A DNA stretch of 24,000 bases, from the NCBI GenBank assembly GCA_963718225.1, contig CAVQYN010000019.1:253994-277993 (forward strand). The letters run 5' to 3'. Positions 1,715 to 22,877 of the stretch are shown in pieces. Made by a program: the position numbers and the translations under genes. The stretch comes from an uncultured Chloroflexia bacterium. GTDB taxonomy: Bacteria; Chloroflexota; Anaerolineae; UBA4142. Numbering within the stretch: position 1 is the stretch's first letter; the number at the start of each line of letters is the position of its first letter. Under the pieces are notes generated by a model, which worked only from the letters and a program-made list of their open reading frames with translations, had not been told where the DNA came from and did no database searches.

Positions 1715-3163
1715 CTATTTCGGAGTTAGCGTTGCCGGGGCAAGCGGGACTGTCGGCGGCGCGACCGCTGGAAGCGTGGGCGCTTTGCCGCTTTTGCAAT
1801 CGTTCATGCCGCGTTGCGCCACCGTGTTGTTCGCGTCGAGTTTCAGTGCTAGATCGAAATAGGGCAGCGCCTGATTGCACTGATTTGTCTGCCCGTACGC
1901 AATTCCCAGGTACGCCAAGTCTTCGGCGTTGTTGGGATTGAGCGTGATCGCGCGGCGCAACGATGTAACCGCGTCCGCCGGTCGGTTCGCGGCGAGATAC
2001 GCAAGCCCGAGCCGGCTGATTGCCGGCGTGTATCCGCCGTACAGTTCACTGGCTTTTTGATATTCCGGAATCGCATTCAGCGGATTGTTGAAATAGATTC
2101 GCAACACCTCGGCGAGTTCAAAATGCCGGAAGAACAGTTGCGGCTCGAGCGCGGCGGTTTGTTGCCATTCCGTCAACGCGCTATCCTTTTGTCCTTGAAT
2201 CGTTAGCACCCACGCCATCGCGCGATGCGCTTCCGCGCTTTGCGGCGCGAGTTGCAACGCGGTCTGCGCTTGCGGTTCCGCATCGGTCACGCGGCGCGCC
2301 AGCAAGTATGCTTCGGCAAGAAACGCGTGCGCGTTGGCGTTTCTGCCATCGAGTTGCACGGCTTTTTCGCACGTCGCAATCGCGTCATTGCCTTGACCAT
2401 TCCACAACAGCGCGCGACAAAACTGCGCGTGCGCATCGGCGTCGCTCGGTCCCAACTGCACGGCTTGTTGTGCTTTGGTCACTGCGTCTTGAGATTGTCC
2501 TTTGAACGCGAGCGCGCGCGACCAACGCGCAATCGGCATTGCGCTCGTCGGCGCGACGCGCGCGGCGTTTTGATATTGCGCAATCGCGCTATCGATTTGA
2601 CTTTGCAGGACGAGTTGATCGGCGGTCGCAACAATCACTGCCATCTGATTCGATGTTGCCGGCTGAAAAGTTGCCGGCGTGGCAGTGGCAGACGGACGAC
2701 CGCCGCCGGTAATTGCGCGACTGATCGATTGTCCGGTCAAGTTATCGAAGAGAAATAGAAATCCGATGACGAACAATAGCGCAATCAACACGCCGCCGAT
2801 AATCAACACCGGTCCGCTTATCGGCAATGCCGGCGATGGTTTGCGCGCTGGCGCTTCGTATATTGGCTCATCGTGTACGGGTTGTTGAGGTGTGTGTTTG
2901 CGCGGCGCGACCGGCAACGGCTTGGTTTCGATAGGACCGTGTGAACTTGATGTGGCATCGCGCGGCGGTTGCGACGGAACCCAGCGCACGCCATCGTACA
3001 TATACCAACGCCCGCTTTGCGCGCCGATCATCCACCAACGATTGAGCGTATCCTGGAAACGCAATTTATCGACCTGGGCTTTGAATTGTTCGGCGGTCAA
3101 TACGCCCAGATCGAGTTTGCCTTTAAGTTCAAAAAATTGCTTTTCCAAATTTTCTACGATCAT
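1715..3163 (-). CDS. Membrane-anchored TPR-repeat protein: cytoplasmic Trp-rich N-terminal domain, one TM helix, C-terminal TPR array
   Basis: The start is placed at ATG 3163 (MIVENLEK...) rather than at the ORF-track start of 3247. That ATG overlaps the upstream gene's TGA as ATGA (3160-3163), and AGGAG lies 7 nt upstream. The TM helix is PVLIIGGVLIALLFVIGFLFLF. Several 34-aa A/L/Y/G-patterned repeats follow (e.g. ..AIAQYQNAARVAP.., ..AYLGIAYGQTNQCNQALPYFDLALKLD..). Confidence 0.7.
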   Translation of the reverse strand: MIVENLEKQFFELKGKLDLGVLTAEQFKAQVDKLRFQDTLNRWWMIGAQSGRWYMYDGVRWVPSQPPRDATSSSHGPIETKPLPVAPRKHTPQQPVHDEPIYEAPARKPSPALPISGPVLIIGGVLIALLFVIGFLFLFDNLTGQSISRAITGGGRPSATATPATFQPATSNQMAVIVATADQLVLQSQIDSAIAQYQNAARVAPTSAMPIARWSRALAFKGQSQDAVTKAQQAVQLGPSDADAHAQFCRALLWNGQGNDAIATCEKAVQLDGRNANAHAFLAEAYLLARRVTDAEPQAQTALQLAPQSAEAHRAMAWVLTIQGQKDSALTEWQQTAALEPQLFFRHFELAEVLRIYFNNPLNAIPEYQKASELYGGYTPAISRLGLAYLAANRPADAVTSLRRAITLNPNNAEDLAYLGIAYGQTNQCNQALPYFDLALKLDANNTVAQRGMNDCKSGKAPTLPAVAPPTVPLAPATLTPK

Positions 3164-3904
3164 GCGTGGCTCCTCACAGCTTCCTCGACGGCTTGCACAA
3201 ACGCCTTGAAAACTCCAATCATTCGTGTGTCCGCATCGATCATCCACTCGGGATGAAATTGCACACCGACGGCAAAATGTTGATTGTCGGATTCGATGCC
3301 TTCGATGACGCCGTCCGGCGCGCGCGCGACGACGTGAAATCCTGGCGCGATCTGTTTCAACGATTGATGATGCAGGCTGTTCACTTTAATTTTCGTCGCG
3401 CCGAGCGCGCGCGCTAATCGCGACGTCGGTTCAAGTTCGATGCTGTGCGCGAGAAAATCGTACGGATTGCCTTTGACGTGTTGATGTTTTAGCGGACTCT
3501 GCAGTTGCGCGGGAATGTCTTGATACAACGAGCCGCCCGCCGCGACGTTCATCATTTGAATGCCGCGACAAATTCCCAGCGTCGGTTTGTTTTCCGCAAA
3601 TGCCCAACGCAAGAGTTGCTAGTTCGATGGTGTCGCGTGCGGGGTCGATCTCGCCGCAATAATCTTGCACCGGCTCGCCGTACTCTTGGGGATGCACGTC
3701 GACGCCGCCTTGCATCAGCAAACCGTCCAGCCGATTGAAAATCGCGCGCAAGGTTGCCTCGCCGAGTCCGAGTGGAATCAAGAGCGGCGCGCCGCCGGCA
3801 AGTTCGATGGCGCGGGTGTACGTCGCGAGACCAGCGTAGCGCAAAAGCGTATCGTCCGGCAATGTCAGCGAACGCGTTGGAATTCCGATGAGTGGTTTGG
3901 TCAT
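3160..3904 (-). CDS. Gamma-glutamyl-GABA hydrolase-like class I glutamine amidotransferase (peptidase C26, PuuD-like); split by one frameshift in this sequence
   Basis: ORFs 3431..3904 and 3160..3612 supply the N-terminal half (MTKPLIGIPT...GGVDVHPQEYGE...DPARDTIEL) and the C-terminal half (LLRWAFAENKPTLGICRGIQMMNV...VGVQFHPEW) of a single C26 protein. They join at about 3612-3625. The total of 745 nt is 3n+1, consistent with a 1-nt insertion. ATGA start/stop overlaps occur at both ends of the gene. Confidence 0.75.
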
Positions 3905-4883: not shown

Positions 4884-7203
4884 TCATCGTTCTGTTCTTA
4901 CTGCCAAACGTTGTCCGTCTCCAACAAACTCAATCGTCCCGCGCGCGCCGGTTTCCAAAATGGTTACACCTTCCATCAGCGCGCGAAATTCGGTCGATAG
5001 CGGCGTGTCGTTACTGAACACAATCGCAAATTGCGGATTCATTGCGCCGATGAAATCACGCGCAAGCTTGCGCGGCGCGACGACAATCGTTTGGTCGATG
5101 ATTTGCGCGCTCAACGCATCTTGGTCGTCGATGTTTGCGCTGTCTGCCAGCAAAATCGACGTGTTCGCCGCATCGATTTGCACTGCCGCGCGCCGCGCGT
5201 CTTCTGAGAGATGCGCGATACGCAAATGCACATGCGTATCCAAATCGATTTGCAGATCCGATTGCGCGGAGAGCAGTGGAATGTTTTTCTGCGCGAGCAA
5301 ATCATTCCACTTGCGTGTCGCCGCATTGTCCTTGGGTTGCGCGACTTGGACAATTTGCCGCACCGCGAATCGTTCCAACACGCTGGCGAGCCCAGCAAAA
5401 TGCGCGTCATCGAAATTCGTCACGACGATGACATCGATAGCGCGATCCCAAAACGGCATCCGTTCTCCCAACGCGGAGAGAATCGCGCTGGGACTCGCGC
5501 CGCCGTCGATCAACACGCGCGCGCCGTTCGGTGTTCGCACAAATGTCGCCGCGCCGCCAGTGTCCAAGAATTCGATATGAATCTTGTTGTCCGGAATCGT
5601 GAACGTGAGATTGCCGATCCACACACCGGCAATCAACGCGATACCTAGCACAAACGCCGGCGAAATTGGCAAGGGGACACTGGCAGGCGTGCCGAAGTTT
5701 TCGGTGGCGGCGCGAACTGTTCGAGCCAATGTCTTTGTGTGGCGATGAACAAGAGCAAATACGCCGCGAGGATCAGTATGTTGAAATGTCCAACCTCAAT
5801 CGCGGCAAATGGAATTTGCGCGACGGCTTGTACGACCAGAATCGTGAACTCGAGAAATGCCCACGCGATCCATGCGATGGCTTGACCGAGCGGGTTGGAA
5901 AATCATCGCGGTCATAGTCGCGAGCCCGCCCCAAATCATCACCGCCGGCTGTGCCGGCAAAATCAGAAAATTTGCAAACAAGCCGATGAGCGAGAGGCGA
6001 TGAAATGTGAATGCGATTAGCGGCGTCGTCGTAATTTGCGCGGCAATCGACACGATGAATGTGTCACTGATTGCGCCGACAATTTGCTGCGCGCGCTCGG
6101 CAGATGTGAATCGAGAATAGAAATTTTCAAACGCACGCGTGAGCGGCGCGACGTACAGAATCAGCCCGAGGGTAGCAAAGAAACTGAGTTGAAAGCCGAC
6201 ATCGAAGAGTGTGAACGGGTTCAGTGCCGACATTATCAGCGCGGCAATAGCAAGCGCGTTGAGCGCGGTGTTGGGACGATGATAGTGCGCGGCGATCACG
6301 CTCAACGAACCCATAATCGCCGCGCGCACAACCGACGCGCCGGCGCCGACGAGCAAAGTGTAAATCACAAGTCCCAGGATGACGATGAGCGTCGCACGCT
6401 TGGCGCCAACAACGCGCCGCGCGAGTTGCGCCAACAGCCCGGCGATAATCGTGATGTTGAATCCGGAAATTGCGATGATGTGCGCGGTGTTCGTCGCGTT
6501 GAACGCGTCGCGGACATTTGCGGGGATGCCGGCTTCATCACCAATCAAAATGCCGGCGAGCAACGACGCGGCAGGCTCCGGTAAAATTGTATCGATGGTT
6601 TCAAGCGCGCGTTCGCGGAAACTGTACAACATTGTCCAAAAGGGTTCGCCTTGTCCGCGCGCGAGAATTTAAACATTGCCGTAGACGCGCACGAGCGAAT
6701 GAATGCCTTGGCGCGCGAGATAATCCTTGTACGAGAAATCGTCGAATTCCGGCGGTGTCGCCGGCTCACCGAAGATTTGGATCGAATCGCCGTAGCGAAT
6801 GTCCGCCTCACGCGGCATGATGACGAGCGCAAGTCCGGCAACCTCGCGCCATTCGTTTTGCACGCGGATGCGCGAAACGCTGAGATGCGCGCGCGTGTTG
6901 TAATCACGCACCTCGGGCATATCGGATAGTGCCGACGAGCAACGCCGTACCATGATCGTCATAGTGAGCGAGGTCGTTGATGGTCCATTGCGCCGGTGCG
7001 AGCGCGCAAGTGTAACGAATTGCACCGAGGAGGAGTACGAGGGATGAAAAGTGAACGATGCGGAGGAAACTGCTGTGCCGCCAAACCGCGAACAAACCCA
7101 GTGGTAACACGAGCCACCAGAGCCAGATTTCGATTGGCACTGGGATAGCGGATGCGATGAAGATTTCACTTGCCCAGGCGATAGCCAAGTAAATCAACAG
7201 CAT
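4884..7203 (-). pseudogene. comEC: ComEC/Rec2 DNA internalisation channel (DUF4131 + competence domain + metallo-beta-lactamase domain), interrupted by 3 frameshifts and 1 in-frame TAA
   Basis: The pieces are co-linear. The N-terminal TM/OB part lies in ORFs 6904..7203 and 6669..7169. The competence domain lies in 5796..6632 (LAGILIGDEAGIP...TAHIIAISGFNI..). An unlisted frame covers about 5647-5895 (LGQAIAWIAWAFLEFTILVVQAVAQIPFAAIEV...). The MBL domain lies in 4884..5729 (IEFLDTGGAATFVRTPNGARVLIDGG). The frame switches at about 6921-6930, 5888-5897 and 5650-5735. An in-frame TAA sits at 6669-6671 (VYGNV*ILARGQGEPFW). Total length is 2320 nt (3n+1). The promoter and SD are intact. Confidence 0.8.
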
Positions 7204-7237
7204 CGATGTTCCTTCGATGGTCAGACGATTCGGGAAA

Positions 7238-7266
7238 ATTTTACATCAAATCGGCGTTGGGCGCAA
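7238..7266 (-). promoter_or_regulatory. Sigma70-type promoter of comEC
   Basis: On the minus strand: TTGCGC (7266-7261), a 17-nt spacer, then TAAAAT (7243-7238). GAAGGA lies 6 nt before ATG 7203. Confidence 0.45.
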
Positions 7267-7271
7267 TAGGT

Positions 7272-7300
7272 TTGACGAATTGCAACTCCGGTGCTAAACT
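7272..7300 (+). promoter_or_regulatory. Sigma70-type promoter of the T4SS-like operon, back-to-back with the comEC promoter
   Basis: TTGACG (7272-7277), a 17-nt spacer, then TAAACT (7295-7300). The two -35 boxes are only 5 bp apart. AGGAG at 7333-7337 precedes the ATG at 7343. Confidence 0.5.
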
Positions 7301-7342
7301 CTTTGTGAAATTATCGCAGCTTGATTTGCGAAAGGAGTTCCG

Positions 7343-7669
7343 ATGGGTGGTCTGGTTCAGAAAATTCTGGAAGGCAACTTTTCTTCGCCGCTGACTTTTG
7401 TTTTCATCATTTTCTCTCTGCTGGCGTTTTACTTTTTGGTTCGATTAGGTTGGATCTTCTTCGTGCGCGGCGACGAATTCGCCGAGAGCGTGGATGGCAA
7501 ACGCCAAGTCAAGAACACGGTGCGGCTTTTGCTCATCACCATATTCATTGCGCTCTTTAGCGGATTCATTTTCGAATTCGTGCGCGTCGGGCAAAGATGC
7601 GGTCGCGGCAAGCGCGCCCGGTGCCGCACGCGGGTTTTTCGATTGGTTGTTGGGCAAGTAAACTATTGA
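7343..7669 (+). CDS. Small 2-TM membrane protein, possibly a VirB2/TrbC-like or other T4SS accessory subunit; C-terminus uncertain
   Basis: Strong SD and ATG. There are two hydrophobic helices, PLTFVFIIFSLLAFYFLVRLGWIFF and VRLLLITIFIALFSGFIFEFV. The Arg/Cys-rich tail after about 7580 looks out of frame. A third frame gives '..SGKDAVAASAPGAARGFFDWLLGK*' ending at TAA 7658-7660, so a frameshift near 7575-7590 is possible. Confidence 0.45.
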   Translation: MGGLVQKILEGNFSSPLTFVFIIFSLLAFYFLVRLGWIFFVRGDEFAESVDGKRQVKNTVRLLLITIFIALFSGFIFEFVRVGQRCGRGKRARCRTRVFRLVVGQVNY

Positions 7670-8733
7670 AGAAATATTTTCCGATCACGCTGACAGCAGT
7701 GTTGTTGTCGGCAATTTTCTTTTTAGCAATCGATGTATCCATCGCGCACGCGCAAGGTCCGCTGTCCGATGGCGCGGATAAACTCGCGGCGATTGCGCGG
7801 CTCGTGCTCGATGTCCTGCAAGGTAGATCGACGATTGGTGCGGACGCGCTGTTCGCGCAATCCAAGCAGGCGTTGGCAGATTTGATCAACAGTCCGCAAG
7901 CCGATTTCGTTTTTCTCGATTTTGGCAATCCAAATTTGCCGTTCAACCAATTCGCCGCGACGCTCGCGCGCAACTTGCTCTTGCTCACGCCGCTCTACGC
8001 GCTCGCCTATCTCGGCATTCTCGTCTTTGGCATTTGGAAAGAAAAATCGATTCCGAATCCATTGCTCTATCTCGCGCTCGTCGCCGGCGTCATGTTTTTT
8101 CTCGCTGCGTTTGCCGGTATCACGCAAGGCATCGGCGAACTAGGACGCATGATTGCCGTGAGCATCGGCGGCGCGGGCAACGCGATGTTCCTGCGCGGCG
8201 CGTTGCTCGACACGACGATTCGGATTCTCGTGACGTTGCAAAAGAACGGCGGCGTGCTGGCGGTCATCGCATTGCTTGTCGCGATGGTCGAAACGGTTGT
8301 CATCTTGATTCAACTTGTCTATCGCGGCTTGGCGATGGCACTCTGGCGATTCATCGGCGTGTTGTTGATTCCGCTTTCGGTTCTGCTCGAAGGCGGCAGC
8401 CCGAAAACGGCGGGCAAGGTCATCGCCGGGTTTTTTGAAGCGTGGCTCGATGTCGTCGGCAAAATCACCTTGCTCTTGATCGTGCTCTCGATTGCCAGCG
8501 CGGATGCGTTTGCCAATTTGGTTTGGCTGATTCTGCCGGCGGGATTGCTCATCGTCGTTTCGTCGTGGGTATTTTTGAAACCGGCGTTCACGATGATTCG
8601 TGACGCAATTGCGCGCGTCTGGTCGAACATAGCGCCGGCAGAAGCCGACGAGTCGGCGCAAATCTCGTCGTCCGCGGAAGCCGCGCGTTCGCGGGAGATT
8701 GACGAGCAACGGAGAAAGTTGATTGAGGAGTAA
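7666..8733 (+). CDS. Polytopic membrane protein with signal peptide, VirB6/TrbL (PrgH/TcpH)-like
   Basis: This is the frame of ORF 7597..8733. The start is proposed at TTG 7666, a TTGA overlap with the upstream stop, giving LKKYFPITLTAVLLSAIFFLAIDVSIAHA|QG, which looks like a signal peptide. An exported region of about 90 aa and about 6 TM helices follow, then an acidic/basic C-terminal tail. The VirB6 assignment rests on topology and gene context only. Confidence 0.4.
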   Translation: MKKYFPITLTAVLLSAIFFLAIDVSIAHAQGPLSDGADKLAAIARLVLDVLQGRSTIGADALFAQSKQALADLINSPQADFVFLDFGNPNLPFNQFAATLARNLLLLTPLYALAYLGILVFGIWKEKSIPNPLLYLALVAGVMFFLAAFAGITQGIGELGRMIAVSIGGAGNAMFLRGALLDTTIRILVTLQKNGGVLAVIALLVAMVETVVILIQLVYRGLAMALWRFIGVLLIPLSVLLEGGSPKTAGKVIAGFFEAWLDVVGKITLLLIVLSIASADAFANLVWLILPAGLLIVVSSWVFLKPAFTMIRDAIARVWSNIAPAEADESAQISSSAEAARSREIDEQRRKLIEE

Positions 8734-8742
8734 AGTTCGCAA

Positions 8743-8795
8743 GTTTCAGGTTGCAAAGTGCGATTTCCTGAAACCTGAAACTTGGAACCTGAAAC
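8743..8795 (+). promoter_or_regulatory. Inverted plus tandem CTGAAAC repeat cluster immediately upstream of the ATPase start
   Basis: GTTTCAGG (8743-8750) is the exact inverse of CCTGAAAC (8767-8774), with a 16-nt loop between them. Direct copies follow immediately at CTGAAAC 8775-8781 and CCTGAAAC 8788-8795. The last copy ends 1 nt before ATG 8797. Confidence 0.45.
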
Positions 8796-8796
8796 A

Positions 8797-11250
8797 ATGC
8801 ACTCGCCCCGAAATATTTTCCTCACGCGCCTCTGGGCGTTTCTCAATTACCGCACCACCATCGGCTTGACGTGGCTGGAAATTCTCACCGCCAGCGGCGT
8901 CGGCATGCTGCTGGTTTGGATTTCTCTGCACGATTGGGCGGGCTTGACGGTTGGCGGTCCGCTGGCAATCTATTTTCTCCTCGCCGGTTTCTTATCGCGA
9001 ATGGCATTTCCCGCTCGACGGTTTGCGCGCGTTGTACGCGTGGTTCAACAAGCCGCTCGATGTGAAACCCGAGCCGACGAAGAAATATTACGCGCTCGCG
9101 TTGTTTGCCCTTGCAATTTTTGTCATCGTCTTTTCGATCTTTTTCGATTGGCGCGTCTTTGCGTTGCTCGCGCTTGCTTTTTTGCTCGCGGCGATTTTGC
9201 TCTGGGCGATTCATGACCGCGCCACGCACGGCAATCGATTAGATTTGCACGCCGTCGCCGCGCGTTTGCCGGTGCGCGACGTGATGACCGATGGGCAAAT
9301 CGTGCATCAAGACGGCAGTCGTTCGCGCGCGTCGATTATTACGTTGGGGCGAAGCGGGTACAAGCCAGCATTGCAAGCGACAGACGTTGCGAACGTGCTG
9401 ACGAAATTTCTCGCCCAACTCGCTCAGCGCGAAGAAGGCGCATTGCCGATTCGATTGTTCTGGCTCACCGATTATCACCTGGGTCAACTCGATCTCCGCA
9501 ATCTCAGCGACGCCGATCAAAAATATTTGCAGGAACTGCGCGCGCTGGCGGAATCGGGCGCGCGCAAAGCGCGCGTGGTCATCACGGGCATCGTCTATCC
9601 CACGCAATTGGAAAACCCGGTGCGGGATTGGCTCGCGCAACTTGATTTTAGTCTCGCGCCGCTCGGCGCGTACGCGGTCGAATCGCTGTTGCGCATGTTA
9701 ATGAACGGCGAAAGTTTTCTTGGGACAGATTCAGCAAGCCGCGACTCAACGCGGAAGGCAATCTGCCGCATGTGATTTATCGCGGCTTTGTGCCGGAGCA
9801 AATGCAATTTGGCGAACAGGTGCAGACGAATCGGAATGTGCTGGACGTGTTGCGCATCGACACGCCGTTTCCGGAAGCGCGCGAGGCGTTGATGCGTGCG
9901 TTGCAATCGGTCGATGGCATGTTGACCATCACGCTCACGCCCTTGCCGCGCGATGCAATCGGCGACAACATTGCGCGGGCAAATTCTGGCGGCGCGTGTC
10001 CCGGCTTGGGGCGTCCCAAACAAGCGCGCGCGATGCGCGAGGTGTTGCAGAAACTCGAAGACCGCCGGAGCTTGGAATATCTTTTCGATACACAGACGCA
10101 CTTGATTACGTGGGGACGCGATGCGGACGCGGCGGAGAAAAATCAATCGCTGGCGATGTCTTATCTCGCGGCGCTCGAATCCACGCCGCTGACTGGACGC
10201 GAACTCGATTCGCTCGATGCGTGGATGCCGGTTTTGTCGATTCCGCAGAACGCTGATCGATTCTCGCGCCTCATTGATTGGCTGGTGCGCGCGCCGCGCC
10301 AACCCTCGCAACGCTTGCTGACGACCGAAGCGATTACGACTCTCGCACATGAAGAAGGTTCGGATGTGTACCTTGCCGATGCGAGTAATCGCATTTTGTT
10401 GGGACGGAGTGTGGATATCGGCAAAGAGGGTTTGCGCTACGCCGACTTTCGCGCGGATACGGGACCGGTGTTGCTCGTGAGCGATCAGGGCGGCGGCAAA
10501 ACATCGACGCTGATTGTGTGGTTCATTCTGCGCTTGCAATTGCTCAAGTACAAAATCGTCGCCGTGAATTTGAAATACTCATCGCGCATGCAAGTGGCGG
10601 TGGAAAAAATCGGCGGCATCGTTTTGCATCCGATCGATGACCTTGACGATTTTGAACGCCAGACGCGCGAGGCGTTGTTCACCAAGCGCGCAGTGATTTA
10701 TCAACCGGTCAAAGGCACGCGCAAATTTTCAATTGCCGATGATCCGTGCCTGCGAACTTTTATGCGCGTCTTTTACGAAGAATGGCTGCCCAATCGTAAC
10801 GTGCCTGCCGCGCTGGTCATCGATGAAATTCATCGCTTGATGCCAAAGGACACGCCGCTTTCACCGAACGCGGCGGAGACCGCGACGCTCGTCGCCGAAG
10901 CGTTCAAAGATTGGGCGGAACGCAAATTGGTGATTGCCGCGGCGACGCAAACGTTGCGCGACTTGCTCGGCAGTAATTTGGGCGTCGCGTTACAAAAATT
11001 TCGCACGATGGTGTACTTTCAAGTTGGTCCCGAAGATCGCGAGATGCTGTTTGAAAAAGGGTATGAGCCGATGTTACTCAACGAAATTATCGGCGTCCGC
11101 CGGCGTCCGCGCGGTTACGGCGTGCTGGTGATGCCGGATGGTTTTTATACGACGTTGCGCGTGCTAGTGACGCAAGAGGAAAAAGAAGTGATTCAACGCT
11201 TGGACGTGGAAGAAACGTCCGATACCACGCCGCAACTGGAGTTTGATTGA
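8797..11250 (+). CDS. PrgI/VirB3-like TM segment joined to a VirB4/TraC/CagE-like T4SS ATPase; two compensating frameshifts in this sequence
   Basis: Three co-linear ORF pieces make up the gene: 8782..9216, 8951..9775 and 9772..11250. The N-terminus 'FLNYRTTIGLTWLEILTASGVGMLLVWI' resembles the GLTxRQ-type TM motif of PrgI/VirB3-like proteins, as recalled from memory. Further TM helices follow (YYALALFALAIFVIVFSIFF, VFALLALAFLLAAILLWAI). The rest has a VirB4-like layout: Walker A VLLVSDQGGGKTSTL, then IVAVNLKYSS...GGIVLHP, Walker B AALVIDEIHRLM, and motif AAATQTLRDLLGS. The frame switches at about 8986-8998 and about 9713-9720 (GESF|SWDRFSKP, at a T-run). The total of 2454 nt is 3n. Confidence 0.6.
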
Positions 11251-11854
11251 ATGCAAATTCCTGCGATGAATCGCGATGCCGTGCTCGTGCTGGCCATTGT
11301 AACGATTGCCTTGCTGTGTCTGCCGTTGTTGGGAATGTTGTTCGGCGATTTCAATCCGGCGGCGATGACGAATGCATCCGCGCCCGGCGTCACGCCGACG
11401 CTGGCGGCGCGCGCGTATCTTTTGCCCTTTCGCCAAGTGTTTGCGATTGGACTTGCGGAGCCGATTACGCGCACGACATTTTTGCTGTACGAAAATGGCA
11501 CCGATGTTTTTCAAGTCATCGGTCAGCGCGGCGCATACACGCGTTTGCAAACTCTCGATGCAAAAATGAATTTCTGGACGGCGTCGGAGAATGTGTCGCT
11601 GACGCCGACGGCATCGGCGCAGTACCGATTTGAGCGACCGTAATAAAGTTCTGCGTCTGATTCCGGCGACCGGCTATGCGTGTTTGCACGAGGATGCGCC
11701 GCCGCCCTTGTTCAGTGCGTGCCAACCGCTACCGAATTTTTCGTCGGCGCGGCTGAGCGGCAAAATGACGTCCGGCTCCGTTGTGGTCTACTTGGTTGAA
11801 ATCGATGGCAAGGCGTACTACGTTCCGCCGGAAATCATACTGACGATTCCATGA
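11251..11854 (+). CDS. N-terminally anchored hypothetical protein with SH3-like beta-rich segments. The ORF track gives two ORFs (11251..11643 and 11630..11854); they may be one gene split by a frameshift.
   Basis: The ATG at 11251 directly abuts the ATPase TGA (11248-11250). The TM anchor is AVLVLAIVTIALLCLPLLGML. The segments '..VFQVIGQRGAYTRLQTLDAKMNFWTASENVSL' and '..SGSVVVYLVEIDGKAYYVPPEIIL' resemble bacterial SH3-like folds. The second ORF has only a TTG start, no SD, and a 14-nt overlap. The combined length of 604 nt is 3n+1. Against a single gene, the first ORF ends in a TAATAA double stop. Confidence 0.35.
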
Positions 11855-11867
11855 GCGAGAGCAAAAC

Positions 11868-11902
11868 AAAAAGCCGGGTTTCTTTAAGAAACCCGGCTTT
11901 TT
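11868..11902. terminator. Bidirectional rho-independent terminator between convergent operons
   Basis: aaaaagccgggtttc (11868-11882) pairs perfectly with gaaacccggcttttt (11888-11902). A-tracts and T-tracts lie on both sides. Confidence 0.85.
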
Positions 11903-11916
11903 GTTTCCGTGCGAGA

Positions 11917-14250
11917 CTAAGGAGAACAACTGTTTGTAAACGTGGCTTGGTTTGAAACAAAATCATTGGGTGTGAGAACGTGCAATTTTTGCCAGCCCGC
12001 GCCGGCGGGCGCGGATGCCCATGTGTCGGTCACTTGGAGTGTTCCCGCGCCGCTGAAAGTCAATGAGGCAGACGGTTTATTGATGCCGTCACTGCGTTCC
12101 CAACGGAAACTCACACTGCCCGCGCCGTTCGCGGTGATGTTCGCAGAGAAATTGAACGTGCCGGGACACGCACCGGTAAACGTCGTTGGTGTTGCGCCGG
12201 CAACCACGCTGGTGACTTGGAATGGAACCGGCGTCGGTGTATTGGTCGGAATCGGAGTGAAGGTTGGTGTGCTCGTCGGAATCGGCGTGCGCGTTGGTGT
12301 GAACGTTGGCGTGCTCGTCGGAACCGGCGTAAAGGTTGGCGTGCTCGTTGGAATCGGCGTGTGGTTGGCGTGCTAGTGAACGTCGCGGTGGGCAATGGCG
12401 TTGCGGTAGGTCCGGTCAGCGTACGCGTCAGTTCGTTGTTGCTGTAATTGCCTTCTTCCACTTCGCGCAACATGTTCACGCGAACGACCACGACTTGCGA
12501 GCCGACAACGGTATAATTCGGCACGAGCAACCGCGCGTCTTGTCCCGGCGGAATCGTAAAAATCGGGCGGTCACCATAAACCGAATTGTTATTGGCAGTC
12601 ACTTGGACGTAGAACTGGCGCGTGACCGCGGCGGTGCCATCGTTGCGCACCGTATACAAAATTTCGTTGGACGGCGTCAATAAAATCTCCGTGACGACGA
12701 GGTCGGGCATTTCTTGAATTGAAATCGTCACCGAACGTTCGATGGTGCCGCCCGCGTTGTTGGCGATGAGATGGTAAATTGTTGTGGCATTGGGCGTGAC
12801 CAAGCGACTGCTGATCGGATCGACTTTGTCTTGATTTAAGAAAACTTGGTCGGCGCCGGTAACGTTCCACGTGAGCAAAACCGAAACACCGCGCGTGATG
12901 ACGGTGCGCGTCGAAGAAAAATCGTTAATGACCGGCACACCCGGTAAAGTTGGCGGTGGCGTGGAGCGTCGGTGGGAGCGTCGCGCTCGGTGGCGGCGTG
13001 GGAGTGATGGTGGGTGTGTTTGTCGGCGTGGCGGTGGGCCAATGACTGCCGACGACGGTAAATTGCCATGCGCGCGAGGCTTTGTTGCCGGAAGAGTCGC
13101 GCACTTCGACCAAGATAACATGCTGACCGGATTCTAAATCGGCGTTGTACGTAATCGAGGTTTCGGTCAACACGGCTTGCGCGGTTACGTCACGACCATC
13201 GACGACCATGCGCAAAGTCTTGAAATCGATGGCGCGATTATCACGGAAGCTTGCAGAAATCGGCACGCGCGTCGTCACCGAGCCGGGCAAGGGGTTTGGC
13301 GAGATCGTCGCATTCTCTGATGGCTCAAAACGCACGACGGTTGGCAGAGTTGTGTCGCGGGTGAGCCAATAGCCCGCCGCAATTGCAATGCCGGCAACGA
13401 GCAACGCAATCACCAGCGCGAGTCCGATGAATGGCAATGAGCAACCAAACAAGCTCGCGGGTGCTTGTGGTTCGCCCGGCAGTTCAGCGGGCGGCAGTTC
13501 TTCTGCCGGCAGTTCTTCCGCCGGCGGAAATTCCACCGCCGGTTCTTCGCCGGGAATTTCTTCCGATGTATCTTCGCTCAGCCGCGCGTCGCGTACCACC
13601 TTGGCGCGAATCATTTCCGCCAACGATTCTGGCAAACTGACTGCCGGCAAATAGCCGAACAAGGAACCTTGCGTGCCAAAGCGTCGTTGTAGCCCCCATG
13701 TGTGTTCGGGATCGATTTGCGCCGAAGCCGGGCGTCCGTGTTGGCGCGCGAGAACATCGAATTGCGCGTTGAACGATTTGGTTGCTTCTTCGAGGAGGCG
13801 CGGCAAATCGGTGCGCATAACCCCCAGCGCGCGCGCTTTTTCGGTGGGCGAGAGTCCGTGCAATTCTTCAATCACAAGAACGGCGCGATGAAATGCCGGC
13901 ATCGTGCGCGCGGCGTTCCAAATGTCGCCGACGAGACCCGGTACGCCGGGTTCGTCTGTGGCTAACAATTCCTCCAAGCCATCTTTTTGCCGGAGAAAAT
14001 TCAGTGCCAAGTCACGCGCGAGACTGTACAGCCAACCGCGCAGTGAAACTTGTTCACTCAATTCGCTCGTCGCCGATGGCAGTCGCTCGAAAATTTCCTC
14101 CAGCAAACGCGCGGCTTGATCCCGGTCGCCAATCACGCGATAGGTAAAATCGTACAGGTCGGCGCTGTACCGATCGAACAAATCACCCAGCGCGTGACGA
14201 TGTCCTTGATTTAATTCGGCAATGAGTTCGTGATCCGATTTGCTTCCCAC
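11917..14250 (-). CDS. ECF-type sigma-70 family domain fused via one TM helix to extracytoplasmic Ig-like, CARDB and Pro/Thr-linker domains; two compensating frameshifts in this sequence
   Basis: GTG 14250 is preceded by GGGAGG 6 nt upstream. Sigma region 2 is present (LFDRYSADLYDFTYRVIGDRDQAARLLEEIFERL, LRGWLYSLARDLALNFLRQ) and so is region 4 (FHRAVLVIEELHGLSPTEKARALGV..). The TM helix is LPFIGLALVIALLVAGIAIAAGYWL. The extracytoplasmic part has an Ig-like domain (..GQHVILVEVRDSSGNKASRAWQFTV), a second Ig-like domain, and a CARDB-like domain (PDLVVTEI...YTVRNDGTAA...EGNYSNNE). A TPxPTSTPTF linker and a C-terminal beta domain follow. The pieces are 12925..14250, 12111..13121 and 11917..12207. 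The frame switches at about 12950-12975 and about 12350-12371. The total of 2334 nt is 3n. Confidence 0.7.
12228..12385 (-). repeat. Tandem ~30-nt coding repeats encoding a Pro/Thr linker (TP[IV]PTSTPTF, about 4-5 units)
   Basis: Recurrent DNA units ggttggYgtgctcgtYggaaYcggcgt are visible on the + strand. They translate on the minus strand as TPIPTSTPTF TPVPTSTPTF TPTR TPIPTSTPTF TPIPTNTPTP. Confidence 0.7.
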
Positions 14251-14274
14251 AGCGAACCTCCCGCAGGTGTGCGG

Positions 14275-15252
14275 TTATGTGCGCGTCATTTGTGATAATG
14301 ACAACCCGGCGCGCCAGAGATAATACAAACCCAGCAAGGTCACCGGCAAAAAGAGCGTTGCGTGCAGAACCAAGGTGTAACTTGTCGCCAGGTTTTGTTC
14401 GACGCCGAACGCCGTCAACACGTACACAATCGGCGCGTCAAAGACGCCCACATAACCCGGCGTGCTCGGCGCAATCGTCACGAGATTGGCGAACGCGCAC
14501 GCGAGCAAAAAGACCGGAAATGATAGCGTAATGCCAAAGCCCCATGCAATTACCACGTACATCGCTGTTTCAAAAAGCCACGCAATAATCGATAGCGCAA
14601 AGACGGCAAAGGAATCGGCGGGGCTACGCAGAACGCCTAATCCTTCCAAGAGCGAATGCGTGAGCCGCGTCGCGCGTTCACGCCACGCTGCCCGCGGCAA
14701 CCGCGCGACAAAAAAATCGACGAGACGTTCGGTGCGGCGCGGCATACCGGCGAGAATTGCCAAGCCGATGATTGCGGCAATCAAAATCGCGGCAACGAGA
14801 CGCAGGCGCATCGTTTGCGATTCATCGGCAAAGTTGAGCAAGAACGATGCGATGACGATGAACGTCAGCATCGTCAAGCCATCGAAAATGCGCTCGACGA
14901 CAATCGTAACCAACGTTGCGGCTTTGCTGACATTCTCTTGCGCGCTCAAGACAAACGTACGGACCACTTCGCCGAGCCGTGCCGGCAAGATATCGTTTGC
15001 CATGTAGCCGATCACGACGGCGCGAAAGAGCGTGCCGAAGGCAATCGGCTTGATCGAACGGAGCAAGAAATACCAACGAAGCGCGCGCACGCCTACGCCG
15101 ATAAAATATAACGCCAGTGCGGGAATCAAGACCCAGTATTGCGCGCGTTGCAATGACGCGAGCATTTTGGCGGGGTCGGTTTGGTAGAACACGTACGCCA
15201 GCAAAATTAGGCTGATGACCAGACCCAGCCAGAGACCGCGTTGTTTGAACAT
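14275..15252 (-). CDS. Flippase-like / lysylphosphatidylglycerol-synthase TM-region family (UPF0104) integral membrane protein
   Basis: Polytopic membrane ORF with N-terminal blocks typical of the family: LGLVISLILLAYVFYQTDP....LIPALALYFIGVGVRALRWYFLL, GYMANDILPARLGEVVR. The ORF-track start (15309) lies inside a terminator hairpin. ATG 15270 lies inside a TGcTATGAT extended -10 element (15274-15266). ATG 15252 (MFKQRGLW..) is therefore preferred, but the start is uncertain. Confidence 0.6.
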   Translation of the reverse strand: MFKQRGLWLGLVISLILLAYVFYQTDPAKMLASLQRAQYWVLIPALALYFIGVGVRALRWYFLLRSIKPIAFGTLFRAVVIGYMANDILPARLGEVVRTFVLSAQENVSKAATLVTIVVERIFDGLTMLTFIVIASFLLNFADESQTMRLRLVAAILIAAIIGLAILAGMPRRTERLVDFFVARLPRAAWRERATRLTHSLLEGLGVLRSPADSFAVFALSIIAWLFETAMYVVIAWGFGITLSFPVFLLACAFANLVTIAPSTPGYVGVFDAPIVYVLTAFGVEQNLATSYTLVLHATLFLPVTLLGLYYLWRAGLSLSQMTRT

Positions 15253-15284
15253 TTGTCTTGTACTAATCATAGCACACATCGACC

Positions 15285-15332
15285 AAAAATAAAAGAGGCG
15301 CCAGACCACTTGTTGAGAGTGTCTGCGCCTCC
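15285..15332 (-). terminator. Rho-independent terminator after the SWIM gene
   Basis: On the minus strand, GGAGGCGCAGAC pairs with GTCTGGCGCCTC (11 bp with one bulged G) across a 14-nt loop. UUUUAUUUUU follows the stem. Confidence 0.6.
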
Positions 15333-21434: not shown

Positions 21435-21463
21435 ATACTAGCGTGGATTGGGGTGAGTGTCAA
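21435..21463 (-). promoter_or_regulatory. Sigma70-type promoter of rsfS
   Basis: On the minus strand: TTGACA (21463-21458), a 17-nt spacer, then TAGTAT (21440-21435). Confidence 0.5.
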
Positions 21464-21472
21464 GTTCGATTT

Positions 21473-21501
21473 TTGACCCCTCGCGACAAACGCGATACAA
21501 T
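21473..21501 (+). promoter_or_regulatory. Sigma70-type promoter of selA; predicts a leaderless mRNA
   Basis: TTGACC (21473-21478), a 17-nt spacer, then TACAAT (21496-21501). The selA ATG (21508) begins 7 nt after the -10 element and has no SD. Confidence 0.5.
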
Positions 21502-21507
21502 ACGATT

Positions 21508-22877
21508 ATGAAACAAGACCAACTGCGCAATCTGCCGGCGGTCGATGGGCTGTTGCAAGATCACGTCGTGCGCGAACTTGAACAACGCTTTGGACGCATG
21601 CTCGTTGTCGATGCGTGTCGCACCGCGCTCGATGCCGCGCGCCAAGCGATTCTCGCCGGCGGCGATGCGCCGATGCCGGCGTTGCTCATTGATGATATTT
21701 ACGAACGCGTCGCGCAAGCGGTGCGACCGTCGCTCGTGCCGGTCATCAACGCAACCGGCGTCATCATTCACACGAACTTGGGACGTGCGCCGCTATCCGA
21801 TGACACGCTCGCCGCGATGAAAATCGCCGGGCAAAACTATTCCAATCTCGAATATGATCTGGGTGCAGGCGAGCGCGGCTCGCGCCATGCGCACGCGGAA
21901 TCGATAATCACGCGTTTGACCGGCGCGGAAGCGCGGTCATCGTCAACAATAATGCGGCGGCGGTGATGTTGATCCTTGCCGCGTTCGCGCGCGGCAAGCA
22001 AGTCATCATCTCGCGCGGACAACTCGTCGAAATCGGCGGCGGGTTTCGCATTCCGGAAGTGATGCAACAGTCCGGCGCGATGCTGGTTGAGGTTGGCACG
22101 ACGAATCGTACCTATATCGCCGACTACGCGCGCGCAATCAACGAGCAGACGGCGTTGCTGATGCAAGTGCATTCGTCGAATTTCAAGATGGTCGGGTTTA
22201 CGCATCAACCCACGCTCGCCGAACTTGTCGCGCTCGCGCACGAACGGAAAATTTTATGCGTCGATGATTTGGGAAGCGGCGCTCTGATCGACACGAGCGT
22301 ATACGGACTGGCACACGAGCCGATGCCGCAAGAATCGCTGGCGACCGGTGCAGACCTTGTTTCGATTAGCGGCGATAAATTGCTTGGCGGACCGCAAGCC
22401 GGCATCATCGTCGGTCGCAAGAACGCCATCGACGTTTTGAAAAAGCATCCGCTCACACGCGCGCTCCGCGTCGATAAAGTGACGCTCGCCGGCGTGCAGG
22501 CGACGCTGTTGCATTATCTGAAAAACGAAGCGACGAAAAAAATTCCGATTTGGATGATGCTCTCCGCCACGCGCGAATCGCTCGACGCGCGCGCGCAGAA
22601 ATGGGCGGAACAATTGCGTGCTGCAAAAATCGATGCGCAAGTCATTGATGCAGAATCGACGGTGGGCGGGGGCGCGTTGCCCGGTGAAACGTTACCCACG
22701 CGCGCGCTGGCGATTGCGATTGCATCGCCTGACAATTTTGCCCAGCGTCTGCGCGAAAACACGCCGCCGATCATCGCGCGCATTGAGGAGAATCGCGTAG
22801 TGTTTGACCCGCGCACGGTGCTGGCGATTGAAGAGAAGGCGTTATTGGCGGGGATTGAGCAATGCGGTAACGCTTGA
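21508..22877 (+). CDS. selA: L-seryl-tRNA(Sec) selenium transferase SelA; one frameshift in this sequence
   Basis: MKQDQLRNLPAVDGLL... ...VINATGVIIHTNLGRAPL...YSNLEYDL..G.RGSR....LTGAEA lies in ORF 21457..21966. AVIVNNNAAAVMLIL...VIISRGQLVEIGGGFRIPEVM..SGA.LVEVGTTNRT....SNF...GFT lies in ORF 21963..22877. The join at 21931-21936 fits a single missing nt. The total of 1370 nt is 3n+2. Confidence 0.85.

Follow-up and report, generated by a model that had tools for sequence, protein, structure and literature searches.

A conserved chromosomal gene module with a VirB4-type ATPase in Anaerolineae is probably a domesticated relative of type IV secretion systems

In the genome of an uncultured Chloroflexia bacterium (GTDB lineage Chloroflexota; Anaerolineae; UBA4142), a string of genes for membrane proteins and an ATPase stands head to head with comEC. 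It lies in a stretch of 24,000 nucleotides (assembly GCA_963718225.1, contig CAVQYN010000019.1, positions 253,994 to 277,993 of the forward strand), hereafter called the window. What does this module encode, and does comEC have any part in it? An earlier note, made from the letters of the window, had read the module as a chromosomal, non-mobile derivative of a type IV secretion system (T4SS) that might act with ComEC in DNA uptake, in the manner of the ComB system of Helicobacter pylori. Our analysis found the observation itself to be largely accurate; it supports a domesticated, T4SS-like and non-mobile module, and retains a ComB-like partner of ComEC as a minority possibility. The module is probably a chromosomally fixed, vertically inherited and functional four-gene envelope machine, derived from a T4SS and found only in one Chloroflexota clade (Anaerolineae and relatives). 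Coordinates throughout are window positions, and gene calls are given after repair of 1-bp indels.

The tie to T4SSs is made by gene 3, whose 816-amino-acid product is, by predicted fold, a VirB4-family ATPase with intact catalytic motifs. An AlphaFold2 model built from a 23-member family alignment (predicted local distance difference test score, pLDDT, 64.7) comprises N-terminal transmembrane (TM) hairpins at residues ~26-64 and 93-142, which fill the first ~150 residues, where other systems have a separate VirB3/PrgI; behind them come an N-terminal domain of the VirB4 type and, at the C-terminus, a P-loop domain. In a Foldseek comparison with the PDB, the first 14 matches of this model were all TrwK/VirB4 of R388 (E 2.4e-19 to 3e-9). 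Matches 1-13 (E 2.4e-19 to 2.6e-14) span 723-825 aligned columns, and the similarity thus takes in the N-terminal domain. The next families were STIV2 B204 (6e-6), the C-terminal domain of Thermoanaerobacter VirB4 (7e-6), TcpA/EccC (5e-5) and HerA (7e-5). The E-value of the VirB4 fold is thus better than those of the HerA, FtsK-type and type IV coupling protein (T4CP) folds by over 13 orders of magnitude, which answers the doubt, raised in the earlier note, that HerA, FtsK or DUF87 families might score better. A broad sequence profile that includes remote homologues (A4) also found TrwK among PDB sequences (E 0.0065), in two collinear stretches around Walker A and the ATQ motif. The Walker A (GGGKTS, 10489-10506), Walker B (VIDEIH, 10816-10833) and ATQ (10936-10953) motifs that had been read from the window are indeed present there and invariant across the family, in which GGGK[ST], DE.H, TQT/RD and several arginines do not vary. 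In all 23 of the sequences aligned, G564-G566, K567, D675, E676, H678 and T716-Q717-T718 are invariant, and G566, K567, E676, H678 and D721 stay so when homologues at 19-24% identity are added.

More than 90 intact homologues of this ATPase were found at 64-95% identity, all of them in Chloroflexota/Anaerolineae metagenome-assembled genomes (MAGs) and all annotated as 'hypothetical'; intact homologues are 814-850 amino acids long. No cultured carrier was seen among the named ATPase matches, all of which are MAGs. An exhaustive search of 1.84 billion cluster representatives gave 18 matches, none from an annotated family, and a further word-index search with a divergent profile returned the same ATPase family only. 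In the exhaustive search, the family consists of one 50% cluster and five remote full-length relatives at 19-24% identity, and nothing else came up. The gene set was seen in more than 20 Chloroflexota MAG species: genes 1, 2 and 3 are always found together, in 26 GTDB species loci and in further metagenome loci, and gene 4 comes next in most of them. The ATPase has a dN/dS ratio (nonsynonymous to synonymous substitution rates) of 0.065-0.09, and gene 1 one of ~0.06, when pairs with unsaturated dS are compared.

The surroundings of the module are those of an ordinary chromosomal region. In the window and in all relatives examined, it sits amid housekeeping genes, among them those for FAA hydrolase, ComEC, cobalamin functions, FtsK, DnaE, PolA and FtsH, and its GC content in the window is similar to that of the flanks. 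No relaxase, T4CP, VirB8/TcpC or integrase gene is present in the 24-kb window, and a repeat search of the window found no att-like repeats around the module, all as the earlier note had stated. Likewise, no relaxase, T4CP or integrase was found near the module in the relatives examined, remote homologues included, so that the suspicion that relatives might carry it inside an integrative and conjugative element (ICE) or plasmid was not borne out; replication genes of such an element were absent as well. Within +/-10 kb in five relatives (L001, L002, L037, L038 and L039) there is no coupling protein, VirB8-like protein or wall hydrolase, and the only FtsK near the module in those loci is the housekeeping 4TM-alpha-gamma form. 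Searches of 72,556 plasmids, 50,697 phages and IMG/VR yielded no relatives. Because of the strong purifying selection, the housekeeping context and the lack of plasmid, phage and viral relatives, the module is regarded as a functional, vertically inherited, T4SS-derived system that is fixed in the chromosome, and not as the remnant of an ICE.

The remote relatives keep the same order of genes: a ~105-residue protein with two TM helices, a ~380-400-residue polytopic protein, the ATPase, and a TM protein with a Pro/Thr linker. At one of these loci (L031, 4608-17251), a remote ATPase homologue (P0106, 19% identity) lies within a run of ~14 co-oriented genes without a Pfam match, among them genes for a second polytopic protein, a 536-residue coiled-coil protein and several TM proteins with Pro/Thr linkers. 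This run sits between ftsH and polA, with a prepilin peptidase gene close by, and may be a fuller version of the same machine.

The other three proteins of the module were characterised by their topology. The gene 1 protein has TM helices at residues ~17-35 and 62-80, an 18-residue charged loop and a conserved C-terminal GFFDWLLGK; an extra G in a run of G near 7591 breaks its frame in the window, and intact orthologues of 105 residues occur in 16 loci. Its closest library match is a faint one to NCBIfam NF045849, a 'pilin-like conjugal transfer protein' of Mycoplasma ICEs, at E 0.02 and far below cut-off. The gene 2 protein has a signal peptide ending AHA/QGP, a ~60-residue extracytoplasmic helical stretch, ~6-7 TM helices and a conserved charged helix at the C-terminus; its gene is taken to start at the TTG at 7666, the listed open reading frame (ORF) starting at an ATG at 7597 within gene 1. 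The gene 4 protein carries an N-terminal TM anchor, a Pro/Thr-rich linker of 0 to ~90 residues among species, two beta-rich C-terminal modules and two invariant cysteines (alignment A5). A 1-bp insertion at 11625 breaks its frame in the window.

Several results weigh against a T4SS-derived machine. By sequence profile, the ATPase family is very divergent and falls outside curated models. The window ATPase had no match to the Pfam families CagE_TrbE_VirB and AAA_10, which the earlier note had put forward for it, even at E 10, none to the NCBIfam VirB4 models at E 1, and none above threshold in PADLOC or PHROGs. The 23-member profile (A1) matched nothing among PDB sequences. Of the remote homologues, P0100 gives only VirB4_plasma at E 0.21 in NCBIfam, and one gives Pfam DUF87 and FtsK_SpoIIIE at E 0.001-0.01, below the cut-offs. 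Confidence in the ATPase model is moderate, with pLDDT below 50 at residues 500-566 and 724-816, and the TM-scores are only ~0.3, the domains being placed differently.

Nor did the other proteins yield positive matches; all four, remote homologues included, gave nothing above threshold in Pfam, NCBIfam, PADLOC and PHROGs. Gene 1 did not match VirB2, VirB3, PrgI or PrgF by hhalign, and its profile (A3) found only noise from the TM helices of G protein-coupled receptors among PDB sequences. The 'VirB6/TrbL-like' and 'PrgI/VirB3-like' labels of the earlier note gained no support: gene 2 has no match in Pfam, NCBIfam or the PDB, its model (pLDDT 67) gave no match to the VirB6 fold with Foldseek against the PDB (best E 0.7), and the hairpins of the ATPase showed no similarity to TrwM (VirB3) or PrgI by hhalign. 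Calling gene 2 'VirB6-like' is suggested by its position and topology only. Its profile gave TrwI/VirB6 at E 0.09 and PrgH at E 0.75 by hhalign, against single-sequence templates of little power. The 'SH3-like' description of gene 4 is not upheld, since no SH3 family was found in a Pfam scan of 17 members at E 1, and its profile (A5) drew only claudin and archaeal pilin noise from PDB sequences. Profile A2 drew one designed protein only. When the family profiles were aligned by hhalign with single R388 and pCF10 proteins (VirB2/3/4/5/6, PrgF/G/H/I/J/L), which are weak templates, all results were non-significant. Thus, one of the four parts is tied to T4SSs by a test, and the others by topology and gene order. 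In the PDB sequence search, the second TM hairpin of the ATPase (profile positions 96-144, window ~9080-9230) resembled the F-type conjugative pilin chains 5leg and 9mzt, though not significantly (E 3.7), which makes this no more than a lead.

Variation among relatives must be set against the reading as well. Gene 4 is missing next to the ATPase in L037. Insertions recur in the spacer that separates gene 2 from the ATPase gene; they measure 0.6-5.2 kb in L001/L014, L004/L037, L006, L008, L009, L015, L016, L017, L019, L022, L023, L038 and L039, whereas the spacer stays below 360 bp in the window and six other loci. The cargo includes at least three different restriction-modification (R-M) cassettes (N6_Mtase/Eco57I-type with a partner; N6_N4_Mtase with a partner), DUF433/DUF5615 toxin-antitoxin (TA) pairs, two to four NKWYS genes and one GNAT gene. 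Because of such insertions, the 'operon' does not form a single transcription unit in every relative.

In the window itself, the module is laid out as one string of genes on the + strand (7343-11854), with ORFs in changing frames before repair (Table 1). The junctions are tight (TAA..TTG at 7659-7668; TGA followed directly by ATG at 11248-11253), as the earlier note had seen. Its count of four to five genes has to be lowered to four, the splits being due to 1-bp indels. The single promoter that it had assigned to the module corresponds to a promoter-like site at 7272-7300, where a -35 box TTGACG (7272-7277) and a -10 box TAAACT (7295-7300), with TG, are separated by 17 nt. On the minus strand, the comEC promoter has a good -10 box (TAAAAT, 7238-7243) and a weak -35 box (TTGCGC, 7261-7266), which reads GCGCAA on the + strand and agrees with the consensus at only 3/6 positions. 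The 5-bp gap between the two -35 boxes, on opposite strands, was read directly, and all four blocks are kept in relatives with comEC adjacent (alignment A6). Promoter and terminator scans were overall no better than shuffled controls; the promoter call is made because of position and conservation in relatives, and not from the scan score. Of the strong terminators that had been described as bounding the module, one is a hairpin that closes the unit.

Table 1. Features of the module and its divergent neighbour, in window positions.
Feature	Position	Strand	Description
comEC	4884..7203	-	Pfam domains DUF4131, Competence and metallo-beta-lactamase; four ORFs through indels
Divergent promoters, back to back	7238..7300	.	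From scan, direct reading and conservation in comEC-adjacent relatives
Gene 1	7343..7661	+	105 amino acids, two TM helices
Gene 2	7666..8733	+	Polytopic membrane protein of ~355 amino acids, signal peptide
Spacer	8734..8796	+	Between gene 2 and the ATPase gene; holds GTTTCAGG/CCTGAAAC repeats right before the ATPase start
Gene 3	8797..11250	+	VirB4-like ATPase of 816 amino acids (by predicted fold)
Gene 4	11251..11854	+	TM-anchored surface protein of ~200 amino acids
Bidirectional intrinsic terminator	11864..11906	.	Perfect arms of 21 nt (100% complementary), A and T runs on the flanks

The frame breaks within the module are insertions at 7591, 8991, 9715, 9743, 9956 and 11625 and a deletion at 10000, of which those at 8991, 9715, 9743, 9956 and 10000 split the ATPase gene into three frames. 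The split ATPase ORFs (492 and 274 amino acids) are also on record in the NCBI/ENA public assembly, on a contig of 416,999 bp. A JGI metagenome contig (L036) that is 96.3% identical in DNA to window positions 8158-13324 carries an intact 816-residue ATPase gene followed by an intact gene of 200 residues. Further, genes for a C26 peptidase (two pieces), comEC (four) and SelA (two) in the window are split by indels of the same type. The breaks are treated as assembly errors because these housekeeping genes are hit alike, and the public assembly seems to carry ~1 indel error per 500 bp. Split genes in the window lie at 3160-3904, 4884-7203, 7591, 8991-10000, 11625 and 21457-22877.

Short repeats of the form (C)CTGAAA(C/T), with one inverted copy (GTTTCAGG), occupy 8743-8795 directly before the start codon of the ATPase gene, and a Shine-Dalgarno sequence is absent there. 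Similar repeats are found at the same place in L036 (560-645), L005, L021, L025 and L010. They may be a regulatory or translation signal.

Among known systems, the closest bacterial precedent is the chromosomal T4SS without a relaxase of the Patescibacteria, or candidate phyla radiation (CPR), a sister lineage of Chloroflexota where the system is thought to have taken on a non-conjugative function (Quinonero-Coronel et al., 2025, PMC12102498). Like the module, it is chromosomal, widespread in its lineage, of the monoderm type and free of a relaxase, and its VirB4 is encoded with small TM proteins (VirB3/PrgI and VirB2-like) and a VirB6-like protein, a layout comparable to that of the module. 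The differences are several. The CPR VirB4, PrgI and pilin were found by CONJScan and Pfam profiles, whereas the components of the module were missed by the profile libraries scanned; the CPR study reported no VirB3-VirB4 fusions, whereas TM hairpins are fused to the ATPase here; and no pilin arrays occur at the module. The CPR hosts are epibionts, while the hosts of the module are free-living with normal-sized genomes.

The archaeal DNA-import systems Ced and Ted (CedA1/TedC, CedA/TedA and CedB/TedB; PMC9905601) offer a second comparison. They, too, are chromosomal sets that lack both relaxase and coupling protein; domesticated, they combine a small 2-TM protein and a polytopic protein (6-7 TM helices) with a VirB4-like ATPase that is associated with the membrane. 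Their components are likewise too divergent for sequence searches, and the Ted ATPase gene is sometimes a few genes away from the other two, as in many relatives of the module. Unlike them, the module is bacterial and has an additional, wall-spanning fourth protein, and genes for Ups-like pili, HerA/Rad50 and ParA are not linked to it. The likeness of the small and polytopic proteins is one of architecture, size and TM count.

A monoderm envelope is shared with the MPF_FATA systems (PrgF-PrgL of pCF10; Con proteins of ICEBs1). The minimal monoderm T4SS set consists of VirB1, B3, B4, B6, B8 and D4. According to the annotated record of pCF10, the module is collinear with PrgF-PrgH-PrgI-PrgJ-PrgK, sharing the order of a small 2-TM protein, a polytopic protein, VirB3-like TM hairpins, VirB4 and a TM-anchored, wall-associated protein. 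In contrast to MPF_FATA, the module has no VirD4-like coupling protein, relaxase, VirB8-like PrgL/TcpC or peptidoglycan hydrolase domain and is not on a mobile element, and its proteins show no sequence similarity to PrgH, PrgI and PrgJ. A 2025 field-wide review of T4SS diversity does not mention Chloroflexota.

On the model of these systems, the VirB4-like ATPase would form a hexamer on the cytoplasmic face of the membrane, held by VirB3-like hairpins, and would dock on the polytopic protein, which would serve as channel or platform in the position of VirB6, PrgH or CedA. ATP hydrolysis might then pull the small 2-TM subunit (in the position of VirB2, PrgF or CedA1) from the membrane into a short conjugative-type filament; alternatively, it might move a substrate through the channel. 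The gene 4 protein would cross the cell wall on its Pro/Thr linker and give contact with the wall or a target. The module shares the lack of a coupling protein with ComB, Ptl, Trw and Ced/Ted (PMC12857230), which makes a conjugation-type exporter unlikely and argues instead for import or for a role in filament or surface assembly. If the module is T4SS-derived, DNA import or cell-to-cell DNA exchange as in Ced/Ted and ComB is quite possible, if short of probable, with obligatory teamwork with ComEC taking a small share of the total; a role in a surface filament, adhesion or protein export is a possibility to be taken seriously, and some other role seems rather unlikely.

It is reasonable to guess at DNA exchange of the kind seen in Ced/Ted or ComB. 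A more specific and rather speculative proposal, unlikely to hold in full, is that the module is a bacterial counterpart of Ced/Ted, that is, a domesticated minimal conjugation-type apparatus for chromosomal DNA import or exchange between cells of free-living, monoderm Chloroflexota. It would consist of a pilin-like 2-TM protein, a VirB6-like channel, a VirB3-VirB4 fusion motor and a wall-spanning adaptor, and would be co-regulated with ComEC in part of the clade. Its ATPase would represent a ninth, deeply divergent VirB4 lineage that is invisible to current T4SS profile sets, and it might share ancestry with the Patescibacteria T4SS.

A T4SS-derived machine might also handle protein instead of DNA, as a surface filament or adhesin with the gene 1 or gene 4 product as subunit, or as a protein exporter; an example would be cell-cell contact in filamentous Anaerolineae. 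VirB4 with VirB2- and VirB6-type partners is the set for pilus biogenesis (Trw and Ptl are discussed in PMC12857230), which speaks for such a use, as do the relaxase-less Patescibacteria systems with their presumed non-conjugative roles (PMC12102498). The gene 4 protein, wall-spanning with variable Pro/Thr linkers and a conserved cysteine pair, would also suit this role. Against it, gene 1 has no detectable pilin signature, gene 4 is not always beside the ATPase, and effector-like cargo genes are not conserved. We consider a protein-handling machine to be somewhat improbable.

The proposal of a ComB-like machine, in obligatory partnership with ComEC, assigns to the module the passage of DNA up to or through the wall, and to ComEC its transfer across the membrane; in H. 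pylori, ComB hands DNA to ComEC (PMC12857230). ComB derives from a T4SS, lacks VirD4, VirB11 and a relaxase and has VirB4 as its sole ATPase (PMC12857230), and the module resembles it, as it does Ced/Ted (PMC9905601), in having a VirB4-like motor without a coupling protein or relaxase. Further in favour, comEC stands head to head with gene 1 in six loci (the window, L004/L037, L005, L009, L021 and L039), where the back-to-back promoter blocks are kept, and intact comEC orthologues (762-769 amino acids) occupy the same position in L037 and L039. The repeated lodging of R-M systems inside the module would suit a DNA-handling locus, which is a hint only. However, of the 21 loci whose upstream sequence is long enough to tell, just 6 have comEC adjacent to the module. 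The gene is missing from this position in L001, L002, L006, L008, L010, L013, L015-L017, L019, L022-L025 and L038, and at the remote homologues. The linkage is thus largely unconserved, an outcome that the earlier note had named as one that would refute its reading. ComB is, moreover, a diderm system with VirB7-10 homologues and recognisable VirB2/3/6/8, of which none is detectable in the module; the same is true of ComB2/3/6-10 homologues, and comEA, comF, dprA and pilus genes are not linked. Since ComEC is near-universal in bacteria, its being a neighbour in one subclade has to be taken for ordinary synteny unless proved otherwise.

The idea of the earlier note that module and ComEC form one uptake machine therefore did not hold up well, and we regard such a machine as doubtful. 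With respect to a T4SS-derived module, comEC is a divergent neighbour, and its adjacency is subclade synteny among closer relatives; because comEC is a very common gene, this is weak evidence of function. Nevertheless, the conserved divergent promoters allow co-regulation of comEC and the module in that subclade.

It is far less probable that gene 3 encodes a membrane-anchored P-loop ATPase of the HerA/FtsK type, belonging to a defence or other system in a hot spot of defence genes. R-M and TA cassettes do cluster within the locus, remote homologues give weak matches to AAA_22, DUF87 and HerA/mad8, and in the sequence-only PDB search with profile A4, EccC (E 0.0067) equals TrwK, but over Walker A alone. 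On the other side, the lead of full-length VirB4 in the Foldseek search is very large, the family proper has no PADLOC match, and the R-M and TA cassettes are variable insertions, not conserved partners. A defence ATPase was rejected on these grounds (HerA E 7e-5 versus VirB4 2e-19), as was a phage packaging ATPase, the similarities to B204 and terminase being confined to the P-loop. A decaying, non-functional remnant of an ancient ICE, in which the frameshifts of the window (1-bp indels in genes 1, 3 and 4) would be true pseudogenisation and most T4SS parts have gone missing, is close to refuted, since comEC, C26 peptidase and SelA are broken likewise in what is a genome-wide assembly feature, the 96.3% identical contig and the more than 90 other homologues are intact, and dN/dS is 0.06-0.2.

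If the module is a T4SS derivative, it bears on how widely such machines are spread. T4SS surveys depend on VirB4 profile hidden Markov models. The present ATPase family escapes Pfam and NCBIfam, yet it is conserved, under strong selection and found in an abundant environmental lineage, and T4SS-derived machines are therefore probably more widespread than is known. To the domesticated T4SSs (ComB, Ced/Ted and Patescibacteria) the module adds a free-living, monoderm case without a coupling protein. As Chloroflexota are sister to Patescibacteria, it could bear on the origin of the essential T4SS of the CPR. Should it move DNA, it would represent a new route of gene exchange in a major bacterial group of sediment, soil and wastewater.

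Two observations concern the neighbourhood of the module. In L038 (17497-22493), the nearby DnaE (PolIII alpha) gene holds an intein with a LAGLIDADG endonuclease domain. Downstream of the module in the window, a convergent block on the minus strand (11917-15309) encodes a PKD/CARDB surface protein, a sigma-70 protein and an LPG_synthase_TM protein; the surface protein includes a repetitive stretch at 12232-12361 (repeats of 30 and 12 nt), and in the sigma protein, an extracytoplasmic function-type sigma-70 region 2 is fused to a TM segment and a Big_13 domain. This block is syntenic with the module in L005, L008, L009, L021 and L026 and not in more distant relatives.

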